Notes: generated by a model from the letters alone, not told the origin. A DNA stretch of 64,000 bases from Thermodesulfobacteriota bacterium (GCA_046728175.1 JBKPEA010000003.1:3517-67516), one strand, 5' to 3'; shown: positions 34,082 through 44,454, numbered from the stretch's first letter. Program-made: numbers and translations.

Positions 34082-34867
34082 ATGAACCTTCGCCAGGCGT
34101 TGCTTAAAGTCGCATGGGTAGTGCCCATCATTGTGGGCGTAGGTTGGAGCGCCGTCGCGGTCGCCCAATCGAGTGCTTCCGCGCCTCCACCGGCCCTGGA
34201 CCAGGCGGCGGACAAAATTCTGGCCAGAGCGTGCCAGACCCTGGGCGCGGCGGATGCGTTCAGCTTTCACGCCGACGTCATGTTCGACCAGGTTCTCCCC
34301 GGTGCAGTAAAGGTTCAGTACGGAGGAGCGATGGATTACGCGGTTCAACGGCCGGGCGAACTGGCGATCCTGTACCGAAGCGATCTGGGTGGCAAGGATC
34401 TATGGTACGGTAACGGTAGCCTTACGCTGTTCGATCCGAAGTACGCCATGTATGCGACGATCGCGGTCCCGTCGACGATCGACGCGATGCTCGACCAGGT
34501 GGCGGACAAGCAGGGATTGACGATGCCGCTTTCCGACCTCGTGTATTCAAACCCCTGCGCACGTCCGAAAAAAATTGCCGTCTACAGCGGCTATCTCGGA
34601 GTCCATCCGGTCGAAGGCGTGCCGTGCGATCATATTGCGCTTTCATCCAGCAAGGATGACTTCCAGATTTGGATCGAGCACACGGGGAAGCCGCTTCCGC
34701 GCAAGATCGTGATCAACCATCGCAGTGAACCGGGTTCGCCCGAATACATCGCGATCTTGTCGGGCTGGAAATTCCCGAAAGACATCGCATCAAGCCGCTT
34801 CCAGCCGCAGCTTCCCAAGGATGCTAAGCAGATAGCATTCATCAAAGCCGAGGAGGCAAAGCCATGA
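34082..34867 (+). CDS. DUF2092-like (LolA-fold) periplasmic protein
   Basis: Signal peptide, then sequence typical of DUF2092 proteins (FSFHADVMFDQVL...DLWYGNGSLTLFDP...QIWIEHTGKPLPRKIVI). Confidence 0.7.
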   Translation: MNLRQALLKVAWVVPIIVGVGWSAVAVAQSSASAPPPALDQAADKILARACQTLGAADAFSFHADVMFDQVLPGAVKVQYGGAMDYAVQRPGELAILYRSDLGGKDLWYGNGSLTLFDPKYAMYATIAVPSTIDAMLDQVADKQGLTMPLSDLVYSNPCARPKKIAVYSGYLGVHPVEGVPCDHIALSSSKDDFQIWIEHTGKPLPRKIVINHRSEPGSPEYIAILSGWKFPKDIASSRFQPQLPKDAKQIAFIKAEEAKP

Positions 34868-35658
34868 ATCGCACACGACGCAGTTCGGTAGGCTTGATAG
34901 CGAAGGTATTCCTGCTGGTCGGCGCGGTCGGCCTCGCCTATGCTCCCATCGCGTACTCCCGCGGCCGCTTCGGAGGCGGTGGGGGCCGCTTGGGGGGTGG
35001 CGGTGACGGTTTCGATCGCGGCAGTTTTGGCGGTGGCAGATCCGGCGGAGACAGGTTCGGCGAGCAGGGCCACCCGTCGAGCGGAGACTACGGGCACTCC
35101 TCCAGCGGAGACAACTGGCATCCGCCAAGCAGCGAATCGTCATCGGGTTCGAGTTCGCAGCATCAAAATGCCAGCAACGACTACAACACCTACCACCAGA
35201 ACCAGACGGCCGAGCAGCAGTCGCGCTACAACGAGGCCAACACCCTGCAGGAGAACCAGGAACAGACCGAAAAGCAGATGCACAACGAGACCATGAATAC
35301 GGTCAACAACACGGCCGGCGATTGGAACGGTGGCTACAATAACAGCGGTAGTTCGAGCACCGGCGAAGCGCTCGGCGCAGCGGCGTTGGGAATGACGGGT
35401 GGGATGGCGCTAGGCGAGATGATGAACAAGCCTCAGCAGAATCCCTACGCGTCGGCACCGCCTCCCGGATATGGTTCCTATCCACCTCCCAACTACGGTG
35501 GTGGCTACGCACCGCCCAGCTACGGCTACGGCGGCGGCTATCCTCAGCAAGGCGAATATCGGCCGCCGCAGCAGTACGGGTATCAGCAGCCGCCCCAGGG
35601 TTCTCAGCCCTATTACAACGGCAGCCAGGTGCAATACGCTCCGCCCGCCGGGCAGTAA
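34864..35658 (+). CDS. membrane-anchored low-complexity protein (G-rich, S/H-rich, N/Q-rich and P/Y/G/Q-rich segments)
   Basis: ATGA overlap with the DUF2092 gene. N-terminal TM/signal segment (LIAKVFLLVGAVGLAYA), GGGG runs, an N/Q-rich middle, a glycine-zipper-like GEALGAAALGMTGGMALG, and a PPxYG-type tail. Confidence 0.6.
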   Translation: MNRTRRSSVGLIAKVFLLVGAVGLAYAPIAYSRGRFGGGGGRLGGGGDGFDRGSFGGGRSGGDRFGEQGHPSSGDYGHSSSGDNWHPPSSESSSGSSSQHQNASNDYNTYHQNQTAEQQSRYNEANTLQENQEQTEKQMHNETMNTVNNTAGDWNGGYNNSGSSSTGEALGAAALGMTGGMALGEMMNKPQQNPYASAPPPGYGSYPPPNYGGGYAPPSYGYGGGYPQQGEYRPPQQYGYQQPPQGSQPYYNGSQVQYAPPAGQ

Positions 35659-35677: not shown

Positions 35678-36841
35678 ATGCTGCGCAGCGAAGAGCGGGT
35701 CCTGACCACCCACGCCGGCAGCCTGCCGCGCACCGCCAGGCTCAAGAATTTATTGGTGCGAAGAAACCGCGGCGAGAACATCGACGTCGCGGAACTCGAG
35801 CGTGAGGCCGAGCAATCGACCCGCCGCGTCGTGGCCAAGCAACTGGAGGCCGGCATCGATATCGGCAACAACGGCGAGCAGCCCCGCGAGAGTTTCTTCA
35901 CTTACGTCCATGACCGGATGACCGGGTTTGGCGGGCGCAGCGAGCGGCAGTTCATGCGCGATATCGTGCAGTACCCCTCGTACCTGGAGAAGATGCGGCT
36001 CGGCGATCGGCAGATGGTCGATCTGATGCACGCGCCAATGGCGGTGGGGGAGGTTCGCTACCAGGATCGCGAGCCACTTAAGCGGGAATGCGCTGACTTC
36101 AAGCGCGTGCTGGCAGAACAGGGAAGGTCGTTCGCGGAGCCGTTCATGACAGCGCCATCGCCCGGGATCATCGCTACGGCGATGCAGAATCGACACTACG
36201 ACAGCCTCGAGAAATACGTGTTCGCGCTCGCCGATGCGCTGCGCGTCGAGTACCGGCATATCGTCGATAACGGTTTCGTGCTGCAGATCGATGCTCCCGA
36301 CCTTGCAATGGAACGTCACACTTCATTTGCCGATCGCCCGCTGAGCGAATTTATCGACTTCGTCGATATGACGATCGCCGCGATCAATCACGGCATCGAA
36401 GGACTCGCGGCGGACCGCGTGCGGCTGCATGTGTGCTGGGGAAATTACGAGGCACCGCATCACCTGGATGTCCCGCTCGAGGAAATCCTGCCGCACCTTT
36501 ATGCGGTGAATGCGGGAGGGTTGGTGCTGGAGGCGGCCAATCCACGCCATCAACACGAATACCGATGCTTCCGGTCAAATCCGCTGCCCGATCACATGCT
36601 CCTGGTCACCGGAGTCATCGACACGAAGACCAACTATGTGGAGCATCCCGAGGTGATTGCCGAGCGGCTGCAACGCGCGGCACATGCGGTCGGCGATCCG
36701 CATCGGGTAATTGCCGGGACGGACTGCGGGTTTGAGACCACGACCGGGCTCGGCGAGGTAGCGGAAGAGCTGGTTTGGGAGAAGCTAAAGGCGATGCGCG
36801 CGGGCGCGGACCTGGCGAGCAAAGTCCTGTTTGGCGGGTGA
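35678..36841 (+). CDS. cobalamin-independent methionine synthase II (MetE C-terminal-like) family protein
   Basis: N-terminus LTTHAGSLPRT, CWGNYE and the GTDCGF Zn-ligand region. 387 aa. Confidence 0.8.
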   Translation: MLRSEERVLTTHAGSLPRTARLKNLLVRRNRGENIDVAELEREAEQSTRRVVAKQLEAGIDIGNNGEQPRESFFTYVHDRMTGFGGRSERQFMRDIVQYPSYLEKMRLGDRQMVDLMHAPMAVGEVRYQDREPLKRECADFKRVLAEQGRSFAEPFMTAPSPGIIATAMQNRHYDSLEKYVFALADALRVEYRHIVDNGFVLQIDAPDLAMERHTSFADRPLSEFIDFVDMTIAAINHGIEGLAADRVRLHVCWGNYEAPHHLDVPLEEILPHLYAVNAGGLVLEAANPRHQHEYRCFRSNPLPDHMLLVTGVIDTKTNYVEHPEVIAERLQRAAHAVGDPHRVIAGTDCGFETTTGLGEVAEELVWEKLKAMRAGADLASKVLFGG

Positions 36842-36923
36842 AGACGTCCTCGGGCTGCGATGTGGCTCGCAGGGACACCGACGCACGGGAACTTTTGTTG
36901 TGTATTGTCGGTTGATCCGGCAG

Positions 36924-37391
36924 ATGCGGACAATACTGGCAACCAGTCCCACCCTTTTCGGCGCGCTGCTTCTGTGCATCACCAGCGCGCAAGCGGCAGC
37001 GAACCTTCAGCTTGCGCCGGACCTCTCTTTTAGTGACGACTCGAGCGGAAATTTTCCGATCGCCGGATCAGACCTGGCTGCCGGACCGGTGGCCGGAAAG
37101 GCCACGGTTATTTTCTTTGGCACATCTAACTGCTGGAACACTGCGCGCGAAGCTGAGCGGTTGGTTAAACTCTATCCGCAATATCAGGACCAGATTGATT
37201 TCGTTGTGGTCGATCTGAATCGCGTGTCCCCCGAACAGCAGGGATTGGTCTCCCGATACTATCGGGGTGCGATTCCCACCGTCGCGGTGCTGGATTCTAA
37301 AGGCAATCTGATCTACGACCGGGCGGGCGAAACCGCGGGCAACCGTGGGGACACGAGCAATCTGCAGAGGCTGCTCGATTCCGCGCACTAG
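36924..37391 (+). CDS. secreted thioredoxin-fold (TlpA-like) protein with a CxxT motif
   Basis: Signal peptide MRTILATSPTLFGALLLCITSAQA. VIFFGTSNCWNTA sits in place of WCxxC. cis-Pro region GAIPTVAVLD. The listed ORF start at 36831 would overlap the upstream gene. Confidence 0.7.
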   Translation: MRTILATSPTLFGALLLCITSAQAAANLQLAPDLSFSDDSSGNFPIAGSDLAAGPVAGKATVIFFGTSNCWNTAREAERLVKLYPQYQDQIDFVVVDLNRVSPEQQGLVSRYYRGAIPTVAVLDSKGNLIYDRAGETAGNRGDTSNLQRLLDSAH

Positions 37392-37400
37392 CGGGTTCAC

Positions 37401-37880
37401 TCAGCGCTCATGGCGCAGCCTGTCGCCTCCGCCGGCGGAAGGCGGCTTCATGCTTTGTCGGGCCTTGCTCACCGGGGAAACGATGCGCTTGGAGCGAGAC
37501 GCGGCGCGCGCAGCTTTCTTCATCGGAAGCGACATCTCGTACCCATCCTTGAGAATCGCGGTGAGCTGCTCCCAGTCGGGCTTGCTATCGAGCCGCACGC
37601 CGACCCAGCCTTTGTGACCCATGTACGGCGGCTTGAAGAAGCGCTTGGAGTCGGAGCTGATCAGAATCTCCTGCGCCATGGCGGGCGCCTTGACCCACAC
37701 GGCCACGTGACCGCTTTGGTGATGGTTGTTGTCGGTCATCGCGAACATCGGGCCGTTGACGACGCGAAAGGTGCACTCGCCCCACGCTTCCTTTTCTACC
37801 ACGTCACCGAGAGCGAGGCAGACGGCGCGCAGTTTTTTTATCGCGGGATTCGAGTCTTCGTACATTCGCGGATGTGCCAT
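37401..37880 (-). CDS. MmcQ/YjbR-family protein
   Basis: EAWGECTFRVVNGPMFAM...HKGWVGVRLD is typical of the YjbR fold. It carries a basic C-terminal tail. Confidence 0.75.
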   Translation of the reverse strand: MAHPRMYEDSNPAIKKLRAVCLALGDVVEKEAWGECTFRVVNGPMFAMTDNNHHQSGHVAVWVKAPAMAQEILISSDSKRFFKPPYMGHKGWVGVRLDSKPDWEQLTAILKDGYEMSLPMKKAARAASRSKRIVSPVSKARQSMKPPSAGGGDRLRHER

Positions 37881-37896
37881 GGGTGAATCTCCCTGG

Positions 37897-39462
37897 TTAC
37901 AGCATGAACGTGATTGGGGCGGTGGCCGTGATGGTCCAAGCGAACCACATCGATTCCACCAGCGCGATCAGCATCAGGTTGCGCGACGAGCTGTAGGCTG
38001 AGACCGCAAGGATTTCGACTGTCACATAGATCAGGACGAGGTTGGGCAGGATGAGCATCAGCACTCCCGGCAGCACCTGCAAGAAGATGCCTATCACCAG
38101 CATCACGATTATCAGCGCGCGACCGATCGTCGCACGAATCGTGGAAACGACCAGATCCCCGCGACGCAGCATGAATTCAAAGCCCAGCCAGAAAGGGAGC
38201 AGGAGCAAGGTTCCCACCACGGTGAAGATGAGCCGCTCGGGCGTCAGCGACAAAGTGTGGAGCGTAACCTGGTCCGCGACCTGGCACAGGTAGATGATCG
38301 TCATCACCAGCAAAGCGGCCAAGACGGTTGCGCCCAATCCGTCGCGCAAACGGCGCCATTTAAGCACCTCTGCCAGGATCAGGACGATTACGAGGATCAC
38401 GCCGGCGGTCCAGAACCAGGCCACTTGCACGTCGCCGACCGCCAGTGGAAAGAACGCGGTAGGAACGATCATCGCCACCAACGGCATGGCCGCCAGGAGC
38501 GCGATAACCAGAATCGCAAGTCCCGGCCATCCGCCGAGACCGCTGGGTCCCTCGGGCCATTCACCCGCGATTTCTCCGCCGATCTTGCCCAGTGGAATCA
38601 GCAGCACCACGAACAGCAGCAGGGCGAGAAGCGCCGCATTGCGGCGCGGCTCTCTCAGGTCAAGCTCACCCGTGCGCGCGGTTCCAAAGGCGCCGTCGAG
38701 CCATCTCACCATCGTCGCCGCAGCCTCAGGGGAATAAACAATCGTCACGTGATTCACCCGGGGAATCTGGATCGCCTCGACGGCGTTGCCCTGCGAGAAC
38801 TCGCCGTAAGTTTTTCCGAGTTCGATCTGTGGCACTCCGGCCAGGTGAGACGCTATCTCGGTGGAAACGGACGCAATGAAGGACGGGTCGTTTTGCGCGA
38901 AAATAAACAGCGCGTTCTTGGGGCGCTCGGGGCCGGTCAAGCTGAATCCGCCAGAAATCATGATCGCGCCCTTCAGGGCAGGGTCGACGGTAGCGTAATC
39001 GAGCACCGCGCCGGCGCCCATCGAATGCCCCATCACTGCGATTCGCGAGCCGTCGACCTTTTGATAACTGCGCAGGAAGTCGACCGCCTTCCTTACATCC
39101 GGCCGCAGCGCATCCGCATTCGCCAAGCCAGCGGGGAACGGATTGCGATTGGCGCCGTGTCCGCTGACATCGATGGCCAGCACGGCATAGCCGTTTTGTG
39201 CAATGCGTCGCGCGAGGGTGCTCATGAACTGGCGGTCGGCGGTAAACCCGTGCACCATCACGATAGCGGGCGGGCGATGCGCCGGTGGAAAAACGCGAAA
39301 GAACGGATTTCCTTCTCCCGGCAGATACAGGGTTGCCGGTTCCTGCCCCGGCAGGTTCACGAATTCATGCGCCGGGCCGCCCGCATCAAGTCGTGCCAGC
39401 CGCGCCACGGCCAACAGGAACAAGATCGCGACCACGAGTGCGAAGGTGTACAGCGGCCTCAT
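37897..39462 (-). CDS. alpha/beta hydrolase fused to a C-terminal polytopic membrane domain
   Basis: N-terminal anchor, HGFTADRQ, and nucleophile elbow GHSMGAG. About 250 aa of multiple hydrophobic helices follow. Confidence 0.8.
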   Translation of the reverse strand: MRPLYTFALVVAILFLLAVARLARLDAGGPAHEFVNLPGQEPATLYLPGEGNPFFRVFPPAHRPPAIVMVHGFTADRQFMSTLARRIAQNGYAVLAIDVSGHGANRNPFPAGLANADALRPDVRKAVDFLRSYQKVDGSRIAVMGHSMGAGAVLDYATVDPALKGAIMISGGFSLTGPERPKNALFIFAQNDPSFIASVSTEIASHLAGVPQIELGKTYGEFSQGNAVEAIQIPRVNHVTIVYSPEAAATMVRWLDGAFGTARTGELDLREPRRNAALLALLLFVVLLIPLGKIGGEIAGEWPEGPSGLGGWPGLAILVIALLAAMPLVAMIVPTAFFPLAVGDVQVAWFWTAGVILVIVLILAEVLKWRRLRDGLGATVLAALLVMTIIYLCQVADQVTLHTLSLTPERLIFTVVGTLLLLPFWLGFEFMLRRGDLVVSTIRATIGRALIIVMLVIGIFLQVLPGVLMLILPNLVLIYVTVEILAVSAYSSSRNLMLIALVESMWFAWTITATAPITFML

Positions 39463-39560
39463 CTAGTCACGCCCGAAGGTGCGCGCGAACACGACCCATC
39501 AACTCCGGCTTTGCGAGACAGCCTCTCCTCTAGAACGAGCGACCTTCCCGGCTGGCTCTC

Positions 39561-40616
39561 TCAGGCTTGCTCACCCTCGATGACGCAGGCCCGGGCTGCA
39601 GTCGGGACGATGTTGGTCAGGCGAAATCCTGCTCCTTGATAAAGTGCACGGAACTCCGCTTCGGACCTTTGCCGACCGCCGGTGCTCACTAGCATGTTGA
39701 CGTCGTTGAAAGCCGCGCCGCGGCTCTCGAGCGATTGGTCGATTCGCTCGGGGTAGACGCCCTCTACGAGCAGCAGTTTTGCGTTGGTGCCATCCATCGC
39801 GCGGTGGCAGGTTTTCAGGATCGCGATCGCATCGTCATCGTTCCAATCGTGGATCACGTGTTTCAGCAGGTATGCACCCGCGCCTCGCGGCACTTCTCTG
39901 AAGAAATCGCCGCCCACTGCTTCGCAGCGAGCCTCGAGGCCGGCATCGGCGATCCGTTTCCCGGCGCGCTCGGCGCTGGGGGGCTGGTCGAACACGATTC
40001 CTTTGAGAGCAGGGTTGCCTTTCAGGATTCCGATCAGCAACGCGCCGTTGCCGCCGCCGATATCGGCGAGTTTCCCGAACTTCGAAAAATCATATGCCGC
40101 GACCAACGCAAGCGCCGTTTGGGCGCTGAACGCAGCCATCGCCTCATCGAAGTTCGCGGCAGCCTGCGGATCTCCGAGCCCATCGAAGGCGCTCTTGGCA
40201 GCGGGTGAAAGCTTGCGAAAGGCAGGCTGACCGGTTTTAACGCAATATTCCAACTCGGCCCATGAAGCCTGGATTGCTTCGCCGGCAAACAGCAGGACCG
40301 CTGCGCGCATCGAACCCGGCGCGTCGCTGCGCAGCAAGTCCCCGAGCGGAGTGAGCGAAAACTTCCCACCCGCCTGCTCGTCGAAAATACCGGCGCTGGC
40401 GAGCAGGCGCATCACTCGGTTGAGGGAAGGTGGATGCGCGCCGAGCTCCGCGGCCACCTCCCGATAATGACGGGCGCCGTTCCTCAAGCAGTCTGGAATG
40501 CAGAGCTTGGTGGCAAGGCCAAGCGCCCGCGAAAGGTAGTGACCGGTGCCCATCATATAGAGCTGAATTTGCGGTGGTATCGATTCCACCGCGCTGGTTG
40601 CTGAGGATATCGACAT
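39561..40616 (-). CDS. class I SAM-dependent O-methyltransferase (Methyltransf_2 type with an N-terminal dimerisation/wHTH domain)
   Basis: SAM motif LADIGGGNGAL, and KHVIHDWNDDDAIAILK, typical of plant/actinomycete-type small-molecule OMTs. Confidence 0.85.
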   Translation of the reverse strand: MSISSATSAVESIPPQIQLYMMGTGHYLSRALGLATKLCIPDCLRNGARHYREVAAELGAHPPSLNRVMRLLASAGIFDEQAGGKFSLTPLGDLLRSDAPGSMRAAVLLFAGEAIQASWAELEYCVKTGQPAFRKLSPAAKSAFDGLGDPQAAANFDEAMAAFSAQTALALVAAYDFSKFGKLADIGGGNGALLIGILKGNPALKGIVFDQPPSAERAGKRIADAGLEARCEAVGGDFFREVPRGAGAYLLKHVIHDWNDDDAIAILKTCHRAMDGTNAKLLLVEGVYPERIDQSLESRGAAFNDVNMLVSTGGRQRSEAEFRALYQGAGFRLTNIVPTAARACVIEGEQA

Positions 40617-40640
40617 GACTGCTTCCTCTGGACCGCGTAG

Positions 40641-41111
40641 TTAGCCCTGTTGCTTGGCGATACTATCGAACCGCTTTTTCATTTCGTCGGCCGACACTTC
40701 CTCGATGCGAGTCGCCAGAAACCAGGAATGGCCGAACGGATCGCGGATTTGCGCACTGCGGTCTCCGTAGAACTGATCTTCGGGCGCGCGCTGTGAGGTT
40801 GCGCCGGCGGCCAGGGCGCGTTGGTAGACCGCATCGACGTCTTCGACCAGGAGATGAATCGAGACGGGTGGGCGTTCCGCACCCTTGGGACCGAAGTAGC
40901 CCATTTCCGGATACTCATCGGAGAGCATTATGGTGCCGCTGCCCAGCTTGAGTTCGGCGTGACCGATGCGGCCGCTTCCAGGTTCGGCAAAGCGCATCGT
41001 CTCCTTCGCGCCGAAGACGTGCTGGTAGAACTCGAGCGCCTTGGTCGCGTTCGCGACGCACAGGTATGGCGTCACTACGCTGACTCCCTCGGGAATTGGT
41101 TTTGCTGCCAT
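40641..41111 (-). CDS. VOC-family protein, PhnB-like (sixth VOC domain of the array)
   Basis: VTPYLCVANATKALEFYQHVFGAKE...HAELKLGS...YGDRSAQIRDPFGHSWFLA. AAGGAG lies upstream of ATG 41111. A TTG at 41162 is an alternative start. Confidence 0.8.
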   Translation of the reverse strand: MAAKPIPEGVSVVTPYLCVANATKALEFYQHVFGAKETMRFAEPGSGRIGHAELKLGSGTIMLSDEYPEMGYFGPKGAERPPVSIHLLVEDVDAVYQRALAAGATSQRAPEDQFYGDRSAQIRDPFGHSWFLATRIEEVSADEMKKRFDSIAKQQG

Positions 41112-41171
41112 GAATGATTCGCTCCTTTGCGAAGCACGGCGCGCATTGCGACGGCCGTGCAACCGCTCGCA

Positions 41172-41717
41172 TTACTGGTCCGCGTTTTCTTTGAACCAGG
41201 ACCGCTCCCGGTTGCGCATTTCCCGGGCCGGTACCGACTCGATTTTCGTTGAGAGCAACCACAGATGGCCGAACGGGTCCTGCAATCTACCCGCGCGTTC
41301 GCCGTAGAACTGGTCCTGGACCGGAAAGATTACTTTCGCGCCTGCCTCAATCGCCCGCTTCGCGATCGTATCGACGTCGTTGACTTCCAGATGAATGATC
41401 ACCGGAGAGCCACCCAGTGCTGAGGGGCTGGTCGCGCCGACGCCTTCCCATTCGTCTGCGAGCAGTATCGAAGCCTCACCGATTTTGATTTCGCAGTGCG
41501 CGATTCGGCCGTCGACGCTTTCCAGGCGAACCACTTCGATTGCGTCGAACGCGTTGCGGTAAAAGTCGACCGCCCGGGCCGCGTCCTTGATAATCAGGTA
41601 TGGCGTCGCGCGCGAGCCGGCCGATTGCGCAGGTTGAGAGGCTCTCGTCGCCGGTCTGGCCCGAAGCGCCTTGTGGCGTTTGGAAGCGGCTGGCCGTCTG
41701 CGCTTCGCCTTCTTCAT
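41172..41717 (-). CDS. VOC-family protein, PhnB-like, with a highly basic N-terminal tail
   Basis: MKKAKRRRPAASKRHKALRARP tail, then ATPYLIIKDAARAVDFYRNAFDA...YGERAGRLQDPFGHLWLLS. No alternative in-frame start exists downstream. Confidence 0.8.
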   Translation of the reverse strand: MKKAKRRRPAASKRHKALRARPATRASQPAQSAGSRATPYLIIKDAARAVDFYRNAFDAIEVVRLESVDGRIAHCEIKIGEASILLADEWEGVGATSPSALGGSPVIIHLEVNDVDTIAKRAIEAGAKVIFPVQDQFYGERAGRLQDPFGHLWLLSTKIESVPAREMRNRERSWFKENADQ

Positions 41718-41721
41718 CGTT

Positions 41722-43569
41722 CTAACGCCGCACGTCCTTGAGCGGCGTGGCGATGTACCAGATGTGGCCGAACGGATCTTTTACGCCGCCGCAGCGGTCG
41801 CCCCATTGCTTATCTGCCATCGGATCGACCATCTCGGACCCTGAGTCGAGCGCGCGCTGGAAAGCGGCGTCCGCATCGGGGACATACACGTAGAGATGCA
41901 GAGGGGTGCCGCCGAGCTGACGTGGAGTGCGCACATAGCCTTTGGCGACGTACTCCGCGGCATGCGGCATGGTTGCATCGCTCAGCATCACGCGCGTGCT
42001 ACCAATCGCAAGCTGGACATGACTTGCCTTGCCGTGCTCGACGTCGCGATGCAGCTCGGTCGCTTCGAACACCTTCTTGTAAAAGTCGGCGGCTGCTCCA
42101 GCATCTTCGCAGTACATGAACGGCATGATCGCGGCCGGTGAGGTGGGCGCGGCTTGCGGCACCGTCTGCGCGCTCACCGCCGCCCGTTTCTCGGGATGCT
42201 GGTGGGCTGCGATGTACCAGACGTTGCCGAAGGGATCGGTCACGCCGCTGGCCCGATCACCGTAGGATTCATCGCGCGGTGCGTAGAGCGATTCTGCTCC
42301 GGCCCGCAGTGCGCTCTGATAGGTAGCATCGGCATCCGCAACATAGAGGTGCAGGGCCGGCGGCATCGGCGGATACTCTCCGTGTGCCTCGCCCATCGCG
42401 ACTATCGAGTCGCCGATCCTGAGCTGTGCGTGCTGTACGACGCCCTGCTTATCGGCATGGAACTCAGCTTCCTCGGCACCGAAAGCCTCCTTCAGGAAGT
42501 CGATGAGCTTGGCTGCGCCCTTCGGATGGAGATAGGGAGTTACCGAACGCAGTTCCGGCGACCACGGTTCGGCCGTTTCCAGGCGCTTTGCGAGATACCA
42601 ATGATTGCCGAAGGGGTCTCTTATGCTCGCCTCGCGATTCCCGTAGTCCTGGTCCTGCGGACCACGGATCGACTCGGCGCCGGCCTCGAGGGCACGTTGG
42701 TAGGTCGCATCCACATCGTCGACGAACAGCCAGATCGCGGTCGGGTTCGGTTTGAATCGCTGGTTCGCATCGGCCAGTTCCACGACCGAGCCCGACACTC
42801 TCATCTCCGCATGGCCGATGGTTCCGTCCGGCTGATTGACCCGCATGACTTCCTCGGCGCCAAACGCACGCTTGAGGAAGTCGATGAGCTGTGCGGCGCC
42901 ATTCACCTGCAGGTATGGCGTGATGCTGTGATAGCCTTCGGGCTTTGGAACGGATTTGGCTTTTTCGGCAGCAACCGAGCGATCCCAATCCGCCTTCATC
43001 TGTTCGGGGGTGACATCGTGGTGGTGGGTCGCGACCATCCACACGTGCCCGAACGGATCGACGAACTTGCCGCGCCGGTCGCCATACGGGTAATCCTGCG
43101 GCGCTTCCAGCACTTTAGCGCCGCCCCGCTCGGCGCGCCGCGCGAAAGCATCGATGTCGTCGACATACAGATGCACGAATGCGGAAGAACCGCCGAGCGA
43201 ATCGGGACTCAGGTTGAAGTAGCGCAGCTCTTCCTCCGCGATCATGATGGGCGCATCGCCGATTTTGATTTCGGCATGCGCAATATGCCCGCTCGGATCC
43301 GCCATCCGCGACAGCTCAGTGGCGCCGAACGCACGCTTGTAGAAATCGATCGCACGCGACGCATCGCGAATCATCAAGTAGGGGGTCGCGATGCCGTGGC
43401 GGCGGCGCGCCGTGAGGGCGGCCTTGGAGGAGGTCGGCAGGGCGCTCTTTTTCAGGCTGGCCTTTAGCTGCATCTTGAACTCCTGGCGCGGCAGCCCGCG
43501 CAGCTCGCCCGCGATTTCGAGCAGCGCGGCGACGCCCGAATTCACGCGCGGGGGCCTGGCGTCTGCCAT
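41722..43569 (-). CDS. four tandem PhnB-like VOC domains preceded by a ~60-aa leader; possible ECF-sigma partner
   Basis: Four repeats of the (T/M)P(Y/F)(L/M)...DF(Y/L)K.(A/V)F(G/E)A...H(A/V)(E/Q)...DPFG(H/N).W pattern. ATG 43569 has GGAGG 5 nt upstream. A GTG at 43665 (listed start) would overlap the sigma gene by 17 nt. Confidence 0.8.
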   Translation of the reverse strand: MADARPPRVNSGVAALLEIAGELRGLPRQEFKMQLKASLKKSALPTSSKAALTARRRHGIATPYLMIRDASRAIDFYKRAFGATELSRMADPSGHIAHAEIKIGDAPIMIAEEELRYFNLSPDSLGGSSAFVHLYVDDIDAFARRAERGGAKVLEAPQDYPYGDRRGKFVDPFGHVWMVATHHHDVTPEQMKADWDRSVAAEKAKSVPKPEGYHSITPYLQVNGAAQLIDFLKRAFGAEEVMRVNQPDGTIGHAEMRVSGSVVELADANQRFKPNPTAIWLFVDDVDATYQRALEAGAESIRGPQDQDYGNREASIRDPFGNHWYLAKRLETAEPWSPELRSVTPYLHPKGAAKLIDFLKEAFGAEEAEFHADKQGVVQHAQLRIGDSIVAMGEAHGEYPPMPPALHLYVADADATYQSALRAGAESLYAPRDESYGDRASGVTDPFGNVWYIAAHQHPEKRAAVSAQTVPQAAPTSPAAIMPFMYCEDAGAAADFYKKVFEATELHRDVEHGKASHVQLAIGSTRVMLSDATMPHAAEYVAKGYVRTPRQLGGTPLHLYVYVPDADAAFQRALDSGSEMVDPMADKQWGDRCGGVKDPFGHIWYIATPLKDVRR

Positions 43570-43648
43570 GGTCGCCTCCACCGCCTGATCGAGCTGCTCG
43601 GTCGGGCTTCGCCTGGCCGTTTGGCTGCGATCGGCCCTTTGCCTTCGC

Positions 43649-44227
43649 TTAGCCATTCTGGTCACCCATCCGCAGGCGCAGATTCTGCAGCCCGCGAAAT
43701 TGAAGCTGCTTCACGGCGCCCTCGGTGCGCTTAAGTTGCTGGGCAATTTCGCGGATACTCCTTTCCTCGGCGAAACGCAGAGTGATTACGCGGCGCTGGT
43801 CGGAGGGCAGCCGGTCAACCATCCGGAACAGGCGCGCGCGGTTTTCGATTTCTTCCCAACAGGGCTCCCGGGGATCATCGGTGGGATCGAGCCGAGGTTG
43901 CCGCGCGGTTTTTTGCGACCGATCCACGATCTCGTTGCTTGCGATTTTGTAGAGCCATGCCGCGAACGGAACCCCGCGCCATTCGAAACGGCCGATATTC
44001 TTAAGCGCCAAATGAAATACCTCGGCGGTCAAATCCTCGGCTTCGTGGCGGTCTCCCACGCGGCGGACGATGAAAGCGTAGACGCGCTCGAAATTGCTTT
44101 CGTAAAGTTCGGCGAAGCGGCGCGAGTCGCGCTGCGCCGCCTCGATTTGGCGGCGTTCGTCAGCCGCCGCCGGGCTGACCTTCAATGCCGATGCCCTGCG
44201 CACCATCGTCCCAACGGTATAAACCAT
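43649..44227 (-). CDS. ECF-type RNA polymerase sigma-70 family factor
   Basis: Region 2 (FAELYESNFERVYAFIVRRVGDRHEAEDLTAEVF) and region 4 (LPSDQRRVITLRFAEERSIREIAQQLKRTEGAVKQLQFRGL). Confidence 0.9.
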   Translation of the reverse strand: MVYTVGTMVRRASALKVSPAAADERRQIEAAQRDSRRFAELYESNFERVYAFIVRRVGDRHEAEDLTAEVFHLALKNIGRFEWRGVPFAAWLYKIASNEIVDRSQKTARQPRLDPTDDPREPCWEEIENRARLFRMVDRLPSDQRRVITLRFAEERSIREIAQQLKRTEGAVKQLQFRGLQNLRLRMGDQNG

Positions 44228-44454
44228 CGGCCGGGGAAAAGGTTACGGCGTGAGCCACCTGCAAACTGCGGACTTTCCCGGATTTTCGTGAAGTGGCTTC
44301 GGCGAGTTTGTCCGATCGTCCCAGAAAAGATCTGCGCACCCCTGCCGAGCCGCCGGTCCGGCACGCTTAAGTCGCTTCTGGGAGGAGACACAAGCCGAGC
44401 ATTGCGGCTCGCCTCCGCAGAAAGGGAAAACCAAAGGTTACGATAGCTAAAATT

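Follow-up and report, generated by a model that had tools for sequence, protein, structure and literature searches.

We analysed a 64,000-nucleotide stretch of DNA from a Thermodesulfobacteriota bacterium (GCA_046728175.1, JBKPEA010000003.1:3517-67516; hereafter the window, GC content ~61-62%), in which a gene for an extracytoplasmic function (ECF) sigma factor heads a unit of seven genes. The sigma gene is followed by a gene for a protein with four tandem VOC domains behind an N-terminal segment that we named NTERM, by two genes for stand-alone VOC proteins (V5 and V6), and by genes for an O-methyltransferase (OMT), a membrane-fused alpha/beta hydrolase, and a YjbR/MmcQ-family protein (Table 1). 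An open reading frame (ORF) check bore out all seven as minus-strand genes, where a first-pass annotation of the window had placed them. After the multi-VOC gene, the genes are separated by gaps of 4, 60 (or 9), 24, 98, and 16 nt, of which that annotation had given the 4-, 24-, 98-, and 16-nt gaps correctly. It had also reported no convincing terminator within the span, and we likewise found no terminator-like site between the genes of the unit. The sole minus-strand terminator-like match in the span (40111-40097) was weak and lay inside the OMT coding sequence. Terminator-like matches were not enriched (6 observed versus 7.2 ± 3.3 in shuffled sequence), and the 98-nt gap had no significant structure (z = +1.3). 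Hydrophobic or transmembrane (TM) segments were found in the membrane hydrolase; the other six proteins of the unit had none. The unit is flanked upstream by genes for a zinc-dependent alcohol dehydrogenase, a nitroreductase, and an AIR-synthase-related protein, and downstream by a thioredoxin-like and a MetE-like gene.

Table 1. Features of the sigma factor unit in the window
Feature	Position	Strand	Basis
Putative autoregulatory ECF-type promoter	44218..44247	-	Conserved motif, fixed distance to sigma gene
ECF (group 4) sigma factor, 185 aa	43649..44206	-	Sigma70_r2, 56.9 bits; r4, 49.5 bits
NTERM plus four-VOC protein, 644 aa, putative soluble anti-sigma factor/sensor	41722..43656	-	8-nt overlap with sigma stop
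NTERM core, residues 19-70, proposed sigma-binding domain	43447..43602	-	Conserved columns, three predicted helices
VOC D1, residues ~89-222, SP..LGG insertion type	42991..43392	-	Pfam, alignment, AF2
VOC D2 (~241-365) and D3 (~370-495)	42172..42936	-	Pair in nearly all family members
VOC D4, residues ~510-644, motif WGDRCGG	41725..42129	-	Alignment
Stand-alone VOC V5, 181 aa	41172..41717	-	PF00903, 53.3 bits
Stand-alone VOC V6, 156 aa (173-aa alternative)	40641..41111	-	PF00903, 56.7 bits
SAM-dependent O-methyltransferase, natural-product/phenol type	39561..40616	-	PF00891, 140 bits; PF08100, 44.6 bits
Membrane-fused alpha/beta hydrolase, 521 aa	37897..39462	-	Hydrolase_4, 64.3 bits; GHSMG elbow
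YjbR/MmcQ-family protein, 159 aa, last gene	37401..37880	-	PF04237, 48.6 bits (cutoff 30.1)

The closest relatives of the window were metagenome-assembled genomes (MAGs) of Binatia, and 'Deltaproteobacteria bacterium CP_BE_BS_27' was collinear with it at 88-91% nucleotide identity. A scan of one genome per species yielded 77 related loci, all in MAGs, from Binatia, many Acidobacteriota lineages, and a few other phyla. These loci were annotated with hidden Markov models built from the window proteins.

The first-pass annotation had pointed to the region ahead of the sigma gene as the place to look for an ECF promoter, and a conserved bipartite motif was found there at 44247-44218. It consists of a -35 element CGTAACCTTT (44247-44238), a 13-nt spacer, and a -10 element GTTTATA (44224-44218). 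An unbiased bipartite k-mer count over 55 upstream regions recovered CGTAAC-N17-GTTTAT, and the aligned motif was CGTAAC(C/T)TTT-N13-(G)GTTTATA; some Acidobacteriota carry the variant CGTTATC. The distance between the motif and the sigma coding sequence was constant across Binatia and Acidobacteriota, and the AAC-containing -35 element upstream of the sigma factor's own gene was conserved in nearly all loci. When scored with a position weight matrix (PWM), the window site reached 36.5 bits and was the top match in the 64 kb; no second site was found within the seven-gene unit. A PWM scan of 1.31 Mb revealed exactly one site of at least 17 bits per locus, always upstream of sigma. The site was absent from loci lacking NTERM and sigma, and the matrix also detected loci outside the training set (L081, L083, and L084). 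In a metagenome scan for the exact pattern, made blind to any protein reference, 81 matches were examined. About 60 of these lay directly upstream of a sigma gene followed by an NTERM-VOC gene, two preceded lone VOC genes, a few preceded truncated NTERM genes, and the remainder were chance-like.

Nucleotide homology with locus L004 (88-91% identical) picks up again exactly at the -35 element, indicating that the upstream edge of the unit lies there. In L004 (6224-8407), ~2.2 kb of extra DNA separates the Zn-dehydrogenase gene from the sigma promoter; the equivalent interval in the window (44250-44452) is ~200 nt. The sigma start at 44227 given by the first-pass annotation falls inside the conserved -10 element and is therefore probably spurious. 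The likely start is the ATG at 44206, 11 nt past the -10 element. The same spacing between promoter and ATG was observed in many relatives, implying a very short leader. We infer that the sigma factor uses this upstream promoter itself and would thus be autoregulated.

The sigma factor contained sigma2 and sigma4 domains only (PF04542, 56.9 bits; PF04545/PF08281, 48-50 bits) and matched the superfamily model TIGR02937 at 90 bits (cutoff 42.9). Its best NCBIfam model was TIGR02952 (BldN family), and BldN was also the closest solved structure (6dxo_A, E = 1.4e-21). Membership in the BldN family (TIGR02952/ECF121) was rejected, because the score of 132.9 bits is under the cutoff of 206.45 and the protein has no N-terminal extension ahead of region 2.

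The second gene of the unit was read from its homologues' N-termini as starting at the ATG at 43656, giving 644 aa instead of the 647 aa of the ORF. The first-pass annotation had described its product as four tandem VOC domains. The four domains are present; however, the N-terminal domain had been overlooked. The first ~88 residues are not VOC and include a separate conserved segment of ~70 residues, NTERM. Its predicted helices in the window are TEQLDQAVEATM ... VAALLEIAGELRGLP ... EFKMQLKASLKK, and the family consensus is QLDxAVExIM - loop - IAAILRIAxDLRDLP - xDFKARLKxxL, with conserved columns at L22, D23, L46, L52, L55, F60, and L64. The core has no conserved Cys or His. AlphaFold2 (AF2) modelling from a 51-sequence alignment placed the helices at residues 18-30, 40-51, and 58-71 with pLDDT 54-72 (mean of the whole model, 83). 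Such moderate confidence would be typical of a region whose folding depends on a partner.

A profile search of 1.84 billion representative proteins revealed 576 NTERM clusters (50% identity) at E ≤ 1e-3, nearly always at the extreme N-terminus. Among the top 149 proteins, 50 carried VOC domains; the rest included proteins with one or two cupin domains, TM plus TonB_C proteins, and many short or fragmentary sequences. An ECF sigma gene lay immediately upstream of 66 of the 67 NTERM-VOC ORFs, with frames overlapping (4-17 nt) or abutting, whereas none of the 12 complete multi-VOC genes without NTERM adjoined a sigma gene. All three of the non-VOC NTERM proteins looked up (the cupin protein L081 and the TonB_C proteins L082 and L083) were encoded behind a sigma gene of the same group, 60-66% identical to that of the window, and their genes overlapped it by 4-8 nt. 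The TM plus TonB_C variant has the canonical layout of a membrane anti-sigma factor, with NTERM in the anti-sigma position. One N-terminal module that is joined to exchangeable soluble or membrane-anchored C-terminal modules, and always accompanies one sigma group, is the signature of an anti-sigma domain. Judging from these sequence patterns, NTERM is most likely such a domain.

The multi-VOC protein might instead be no anti-sigma factor at all. NTERM would then have an accessory role, for example in oligomerisation or localisation, within a binding protein or enzyme that happens to be encoded by the first gene of the regulon, and regulation of the sigma factor would be purely transcriptional or would fall to an unlinked factor. 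This alternative accords with the fact that some ECF groups have no anti-sigma factors (PMC7826278), with the moderate AF2 confidence of NTERM, and with its lack of detectable similarity to known anti-sigma domains. However, the near-perfect association with sigma follows NTERM and not VOC, NTERM occurs on unrelated C-terminal modules behind the same sigma group with overlapping frames, and the TonB_C form is laid out as a membrane anti-sigma factor. We regard the alternative as improbable.

Three further observations concern the make-up of NTERM genes. L082 (260-1372) and L083 (672-1730) each encode, directly after sigma, NTERM followed by a glycine-rich linker, one TM segment, and TonB_C; the L083 promoter is a variant, CGTGACC...GTTATCC. 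On the metagenome contigs L147, L122, and L130, the promoter runs into truncated or fused NTERM-VOC genes and no intact sigma gene is present; the L147 gene joins the N-terminal part of sigma, in frame, to the second helix of NTERM. These three contigs, together with locus L077, look like decayed copies or assembly artefacts.

We compared NTERM with the known anti-sigma classes. The NTERM profile had no significant match among PDB sequences (best E = 0.17) or in Pfam (best E = 0.027, one member to an unrelated family), and 22 NTERM sequences had no match to the anti-sigma Pfam families at E ≤ 10. Because these PDB and Pfam matches are at chance level, NTERM is not recognisable as a class I or class II domain. 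A class I domain, including the zinc-binding (ZAS) type, was rejected on the absence of Pfam similarity, of an HxxxCxxC motif, and of conserved Cys or His. ChrR, which controls Rhodobacter sigmaE, combines an N-terminal anti-sigma domain with a C-terminal cupin, and RsrA, which controls Streptomyces sigmaR, is a zinc anti-sigma factor; in both of these cytoplasmic proteins, the sensor part of the anti-sigma factor itself answers a chemical signal. The NTERM-cupin proteins parallel ChrR in pairing a putative anti-sigma domain with a cupin. They differ in that ChrR and RsrA have a zinc-binding class I domain (HxxxCxxC), whereas NTERM has no conserved Cys or His and no Pfam anti-sigma match.

The class III domain of RsbN, which had been regarded as limited to Streptomyces, has three helices with variable flexible linkers and is dissimilar to the domains of classes I and II (PMC6101532). 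NTERM possibly resembles it, because BldN, the partner of RsbN in Streptomyces venezuelae (ECF121, PDB 6DXO), provides both the closest solved sigma structure and the best NCBIfam model for the window sigma factor. NTERM also has three conserved predicted helices and variable linkers, the first linker being ~30 residues longer in a clade of 990-aa homologues. No sequence match to 6DXO chain B was detected. In the RsbN type, sigma2 and sigma4 grip alpha3 between them, while alpha1-alpha2 pack against sigma4; NTERM, to which the same gross description of three helices and variable linkers applies, may be of this type. There are further differences between the two systems. RsbN crosses the membrane once and has a large part outside the cytoplasm, whereas the window partner is predicted to be soluble. 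BldN has an N-terminal pro-sequence that the window sigma factor lacks, and its regulon consists of the developmental chaplins and rodlins.

In the multi-VOC ORF, Pfam detected four PF00903 stretches (176 bits; cutoff 20.6), and V5 and V6 had one each. The six domains aligned end to end at 28-47% pairwise identity with one common motif, bearing out the view of the first-pass annotation that they are related paralogues of one subfamily. That annotation had spoken of a paralogue expansion. They are true paralogues, but the four-domain array is ancient rather than recent, and residues specific to each of the positions D1-D4 are invariant in 51 orthologues. The label PhnB-like was not sustained: PF06983 scored 22.3 bits (cutoff 24) with no single stretch passing, and the domains are of the PF00903/At5g48480-like type. 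JGI names the multi-VOC homologues 'PhnB protein' despite the sub-threshold PF06983 score. V5 does carry the basic tail previously described, although at the N-terminus (~35 aa), and it is 46.7% identical to D1.

AF2 predicted four confident VOC domains, with pLDDT above 90 for D2-D3, and the absence of a TM segment predicts a soluble protein. Domain typing showed that two-VOC proteins are D2-D3, three-VOC proteins X-D2-D3, and four-VOC proteins D1-D2-D3-D4. The D2-D3 pair is thus the nearly universal core, around which D1- and D4-type domains have been added; NTERM-VOC proteins had 1, 2, 3, 4, or 6 VOC domains. The closest solved sequences to the VOC domains were TioX (E = 4.3e-10), 5umq and 5uhj (~1e-4), At5g48480, and Rv0577. 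By structure, the best Foldseek matches were two-domain glyoxalase I folds (TMt 0.64, over unspecified query domains), and TioX was also matched by fold (TMt 0.75). TioX (thiocoraline, 3ITW) and the TnmS-type enediyne binders (5UMQ and 5UHJ) are non-enzymatic, drug-sequestering proteins. They and the bleomycin- and mitomycin-binding proteins lack the glyoxalase I metal tetrad, as do the window domains. The arrangement is different, because the drug-binding proteins are single-domain homodimers in producer clusters with no regulatory domain, whereas four domains are fused behind a sigma-linked head in the window. A glyoxalase I metalloenzyme was rejected: the E. coli GloA tetrad (H5, E56, H74, E122) was kept in none of the six domains in a MAFFT alignment, an approximate comparison whose C-terminal part is unreliable.

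The D4 motif WGDRCGG (41746-41766, minus strand; residues 618-624 of the 644-aa protein) contains a cysteine that almost all Binatia orthologues share. It is also kept in a cupin-VOC hybrid partner from Candidatus Binatus, which likewise ends in a D4-type domain. The cysteine is absent from the Acidobacteriota versions and from the other five VOC domains of the unit. A possible role for it, specific to the clade, is that of a thiol sensor or catalytic residue; because it is limited to the Binatia clade, a cysteine sensor cannot explain the whole family, and a universal one was rejected.

These features bear on whether the VOC array of the same sigma/anti-sigma pair could report an internal state, that is, a reactive metabolite, a metal, or thiol oxidation or alkylation at the D4 cysteine. 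The signals would be, for example, methylglyoxal-type electrophiles or quinones, and the regulon would be a general electrophile or oxidative-stress defence. The near-invariance of the cysteine in Binatia and in the hybrid agrees with such a role, and VOC proteins include metal-dependent enzymes and glyoxalases, as their Pfam names indicate. AhpC/TSA peroxiredoxin genes end the related clusters L001 and L084, and a thioredoxin-like gene adjoins the window unit. In addition, SigG of M. tuberculosis controls glyoxalase-domain proteins (bioRxiv 10.1101/2020.01.30.927608). However, the cysteine is lacking in all Acidobacteriota, the universal D2-D3 core has no conserved cysteine, and none of the six domains conserves the glyoxalase I metal ligands, within the limits of the approximate alignment. 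The OMT, the MFS protein or membrane hydrolase, and the TioX/TnmS-like VOC domains fit the handling of organic compounds better. We consider an internal signal rather unlikely.

The remaining genes of the unit were identified by Pfam as the first-pass annotation had proposed. The small-molecule-type OMT matched both PF00891 (catalytic domain) and PF08100 (dimerisation domain) above threshold, placing it among the class I SAM-dependent small-molecule O-methyltransferases, and its closest solved structures were CalO6 (4e-76), 6c5b, AlpH, MmcR (2e-55), and CalO1. Fusion of a hydrolase to a membrane domain was supported by an alpha/beta hydrolase match and by TM segments. The protein has an N-terminal TM segment, the hydrolase domain, and ~6-7 C-terminal TM helices; the ~245 C-terminal residues forming the TM part had no Pfam family match. 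The hydrolase domain resembles cutinase/dienelactone-hydrolase-type esterases, and the full-length fusion of ~521 aa is a family conserved in Binatia. The MmcQ/YjbR assignment was above the PF04237 threshold, and no solved sequence relative of this protein was found at E ≤ 0.01.

At E ≤ 1e-10, 1397 homologues of the 647-aa ORF were detected, of which the best 120 were multi-VOC proteins, mostly of 600-1000 aa and, where their source gave a name, called 'VOC family' or 'PhnB protein'; wherever an organism was named among these 120, it was Candidatus Binataceae. The co-occurrence on which the first-pass annotation had staked its reading was found in relatives, the order sigma, multi-VOC, VOC(s), OMT, YjbR recurring in many Binatia. 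Two Binatia contigs carried sigma, multi-VOC (4-8 nt overlap), 2-3 single VOC genes, OMT, in some cases a further VOC, YjbR, and MFS. A distant 990-aa homologue retained only sigma and the multi-VOC gene. Across Binatia and Acidobacteriota, the sigma gene and the NTERM-VOC gene were the only core kept; the extra VOC genes, OMT, YjbR, and MFS were confined to the Binatia clade. A stand-alone VOC gene occupied the V5 position in L001, L002, and L004. The membrane hydrolase was present at this unit only in the sublineage of the window (the window, L004, and L005/L086), from which MFS was absent; most other Binatia loci lacked a hydrolase, and their unit closed with YjbR followed by MFS. The gene set that had been taken as one system is therefore a conserved sigma and NTERM-VOC pair with lineage-specific accessories (OMT, YjbR, MFS, and hydrolase).

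Two Candidatus Binatus contigs (L084, 2842-10013, and L085) carried a paralogous cluster with a 26-bit match to the promoter of the unit. In L084, sigma is followed by a gene for NTERM, two cupins, and a VOC domain, and then by a VOC gene; MFS is on the opposite strand, and a membrane hydrolase, VOC, cupin, and AhpC/TSA follow in that order. As judged from its predicted domains, this cluster shows VOC and cupin modules combined on one partner and a membrane hydrolase recurring in these putative regulons.

The accessory genes allow another explanation to be weighed, namely a natural-product cluster in which the VOC proteins confer resistance, the OMT acts in tailoring, the YjbR protein is MmcQ-like, and the sigma factor is the pathway regulator. 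The OMT is closest to the biosynthetic enzymes CalO6, AlpH, MmcR, and CalO1; TioX and TnmS, which give producers self-resistance, are the nearest relatives of the VOC domains; and MmcQ is the source of the other name of the YjbR family. However, the neighbours of the unit in the window include no polyketide synthase, nonribosomal peptide synthetase, terpene, or other core gene, and none were found in the flanks of L001, L002, L003, and L086, which all differ. The conserved unit is bounded by the promoter on one side and by YjbR or MFS on the other, and hundreds of soil Acidobacteriota have the core pair but neither OMT nor YjbR. A biosynthetic cluster was rejected on the absence of core genes here and in the annotated related loci and is highly improbable, and the tailoring role suggested by the first-pass annotation found no support. 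The small-molecule sensing and detoxification that the same annotation had proposed fits, as the closest VOC and OMT structures act on aromatic natural products and drugs.

The reading that we consider probable takes the whole span as a single, autoregulated operon of an ECF sigma factor and its anti-sigma factor, with the VOC array as a cytoplasmic sensor. NTERM would bind the sigma factor and keep it inactive, perhaps in the manner of the three-helix class III RsbN type. The VOC array, with D2-D3 as its core, would be a cytoplasmic receptor that probably binds, or is modified by, a hydrophobic, aromatic, or electrophilic small molecule, and ligand binding or modification would free the sigma factor. 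With RNA polymerase, free sigma would transcribe its own operon from the short-leader promoter. Induction would raise sigma and anti-sigma, providing feedback and extra binding capacity, together with the two stand-alone VOC proteins (for sequestration or conversion), the aromatic-type OMT (for modification), the membrane hydrolase (an MFS exporter in sister lineages), and YjbR. The inducer is most likely a xenobiotic, an antibiotic, or a phenolic or quinone-type compound. The first-pass annotation had seen an ECF-controlled battery of proteins. One conserved promoter does head the unit, with no second site inside; however, the multi-VOC protein is most likely the sigma factor's own anti-sigma factor and sensor rather than simply another of the regulated enzymes.

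Several points weigh against this interpretation. The binding of sigma by NTERM is deduced from sequence, operon continuity across the 98-nt gap is assumed, and a VOC domain may also function as an enzyme or bind a metal. The PWM was trained on the same loci that were later scanned, which is offset in part by the held-out loci and the blind pattern scan. L077, a 1.7-kb contig, has an NTERM-VOC gene with a degenerate NTERM and no sigma gene, and in a few metagenome loci the promoter lies directly before truncated NTERM genes, which look like decay products. The inter-domain arrangement in the AF2 model is unreliable (pTM 0.46), and no release mechanism can be read from it. Finally, the accessory genes differ between lineages, and the chemistry of the regulon may thus not be uniform.

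The promoter motif also occurred away from the unit. A second match in the window (ACCGTAACCTTCCGCGCTTTTCGGCGGTTAGC, 12298-12269, minus strand) scored 24.4 bits, which was reached in only ~1 in 100 shuffles of the window. It is intergenic and lies upstream of genes for a GNAT acetyltransferase, a VOC protein, and a beta-lactamase-fold hydrolase (12233-11556, 11608-11144, and 11015-10053, all on the minus strand). In the syntenic relative L088 (81% protein identity), the site still scores 26.6 bits; because the intergenic region of L088 is fairly conserved throughout, its retention is modest support. This operon, 32 kb away from the unit, may be a second member of the regulon and a second target of the sigma factor. 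In L166 (1099-1128), an exact promoter match directly precedes a single VOC gene of a different subtype (150 aa), and in L095 the promoter is followed by a V6-like VOC gene and then sigma. These two loci suggest that stand-alone VOC genes are direct targets.

Downstream of the unit, the window encodes a thioredoxin/AhpC-like protein with a signal peptide (36831-37391, plus strand; likely start near 36924). Its gene converges on the YjbR gene, with stop codons 9 nt apart. A weak ECF-like site upstream of it (GGGAACTTTT-N-GGTTGAT, 36887-36920, plus strand) scored 13 bits, which is the noise level of the PWM. Farther along, a 264-aa ORF (34864-35658, plus strand) has an N-terminal hydrophobic segment followed by extreme Gly/Ser/Tyr/Gln/Pro low complexity, with GGGG runs and YGGGYAPPSYGYGGGYPQQG repeats.

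Among characterised systems, the regulon most similar in content is that of M. tuberculosis SigG and Streptomyces ECF56, in which an ECF sigma factor controls glyoxalase/VOC, hydrolase, and other small 'detox-like' proteins that are functionally uncharacterised (bioRxiv 10.1101/2020.01.30.927608). ECF56 resembles the window system in having VOC-domain and hydrolase proteins in the regulon of an ECF sigma factor. It differs in that the sigma factor is regulated through a SnoaL-like C-terminal extension, in its promoter (CGATGAGTT-N14-GGTC, versus CGTAACCTTT-N13-GTTTATA here), and in that its VOC proteins serve purely as targets, with no sigma-linked domain attached. In full-text searches of the literature, VOC, glyoxalase, or PhnB domains were described for no anti-sigma factor. 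The text of the ECF reclassification paper (PMC7826278), its supplementary tables aside, does not mention glyoxalase, VOC, or cupin domains, and an ECF Hub group may already record a glyoxalase gene at position +1. Soluble anti-sigma factors unlike the known ones would be missed by ECF classification (PMC7826278).

The regulatory logic proposed here, an ECF sigma factor with a co-transcribed anti-sigma factor and autoregulation, would be ordinary; what appears to be new is the putative sigma-binding head and the sensor module, in a family spread widely through little-studied soil phyla. We suggest tentatively that NTERM could be an unrecognised anti-sigma family, either a fourth structural class or the first RsbN-like domain outside Streptomyces, in which VOC and cupin arrays serve as both sensor and sink. 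If this is true, the locus would represent a widespread modular pathway for sensing xenobiotics or antibiotics in abundant soil phyla (Acidobacteriota and Binatia) and the first signalling role for the VOC domain. ECF sigma factors are a major route of bacterial signalling, and the locus exposes a large unannotated sigma-linked N-terminal family (576 clusters) that comes with a defined promoter motif and exchangeable modules (VOC, cupin, and TonB_C). Confirmation would assign a function to many 'VOC family / PhnB' proteins of uncultured soil bacteria and widen the structural range of anti-sigma domains. It would also provide a compact set of sigma factor, anti-sigma factor, and promoter for which inducers could be screened, revealing the chemicals that these bacteria sense and yielding orthogonal ligand-responsive switches.

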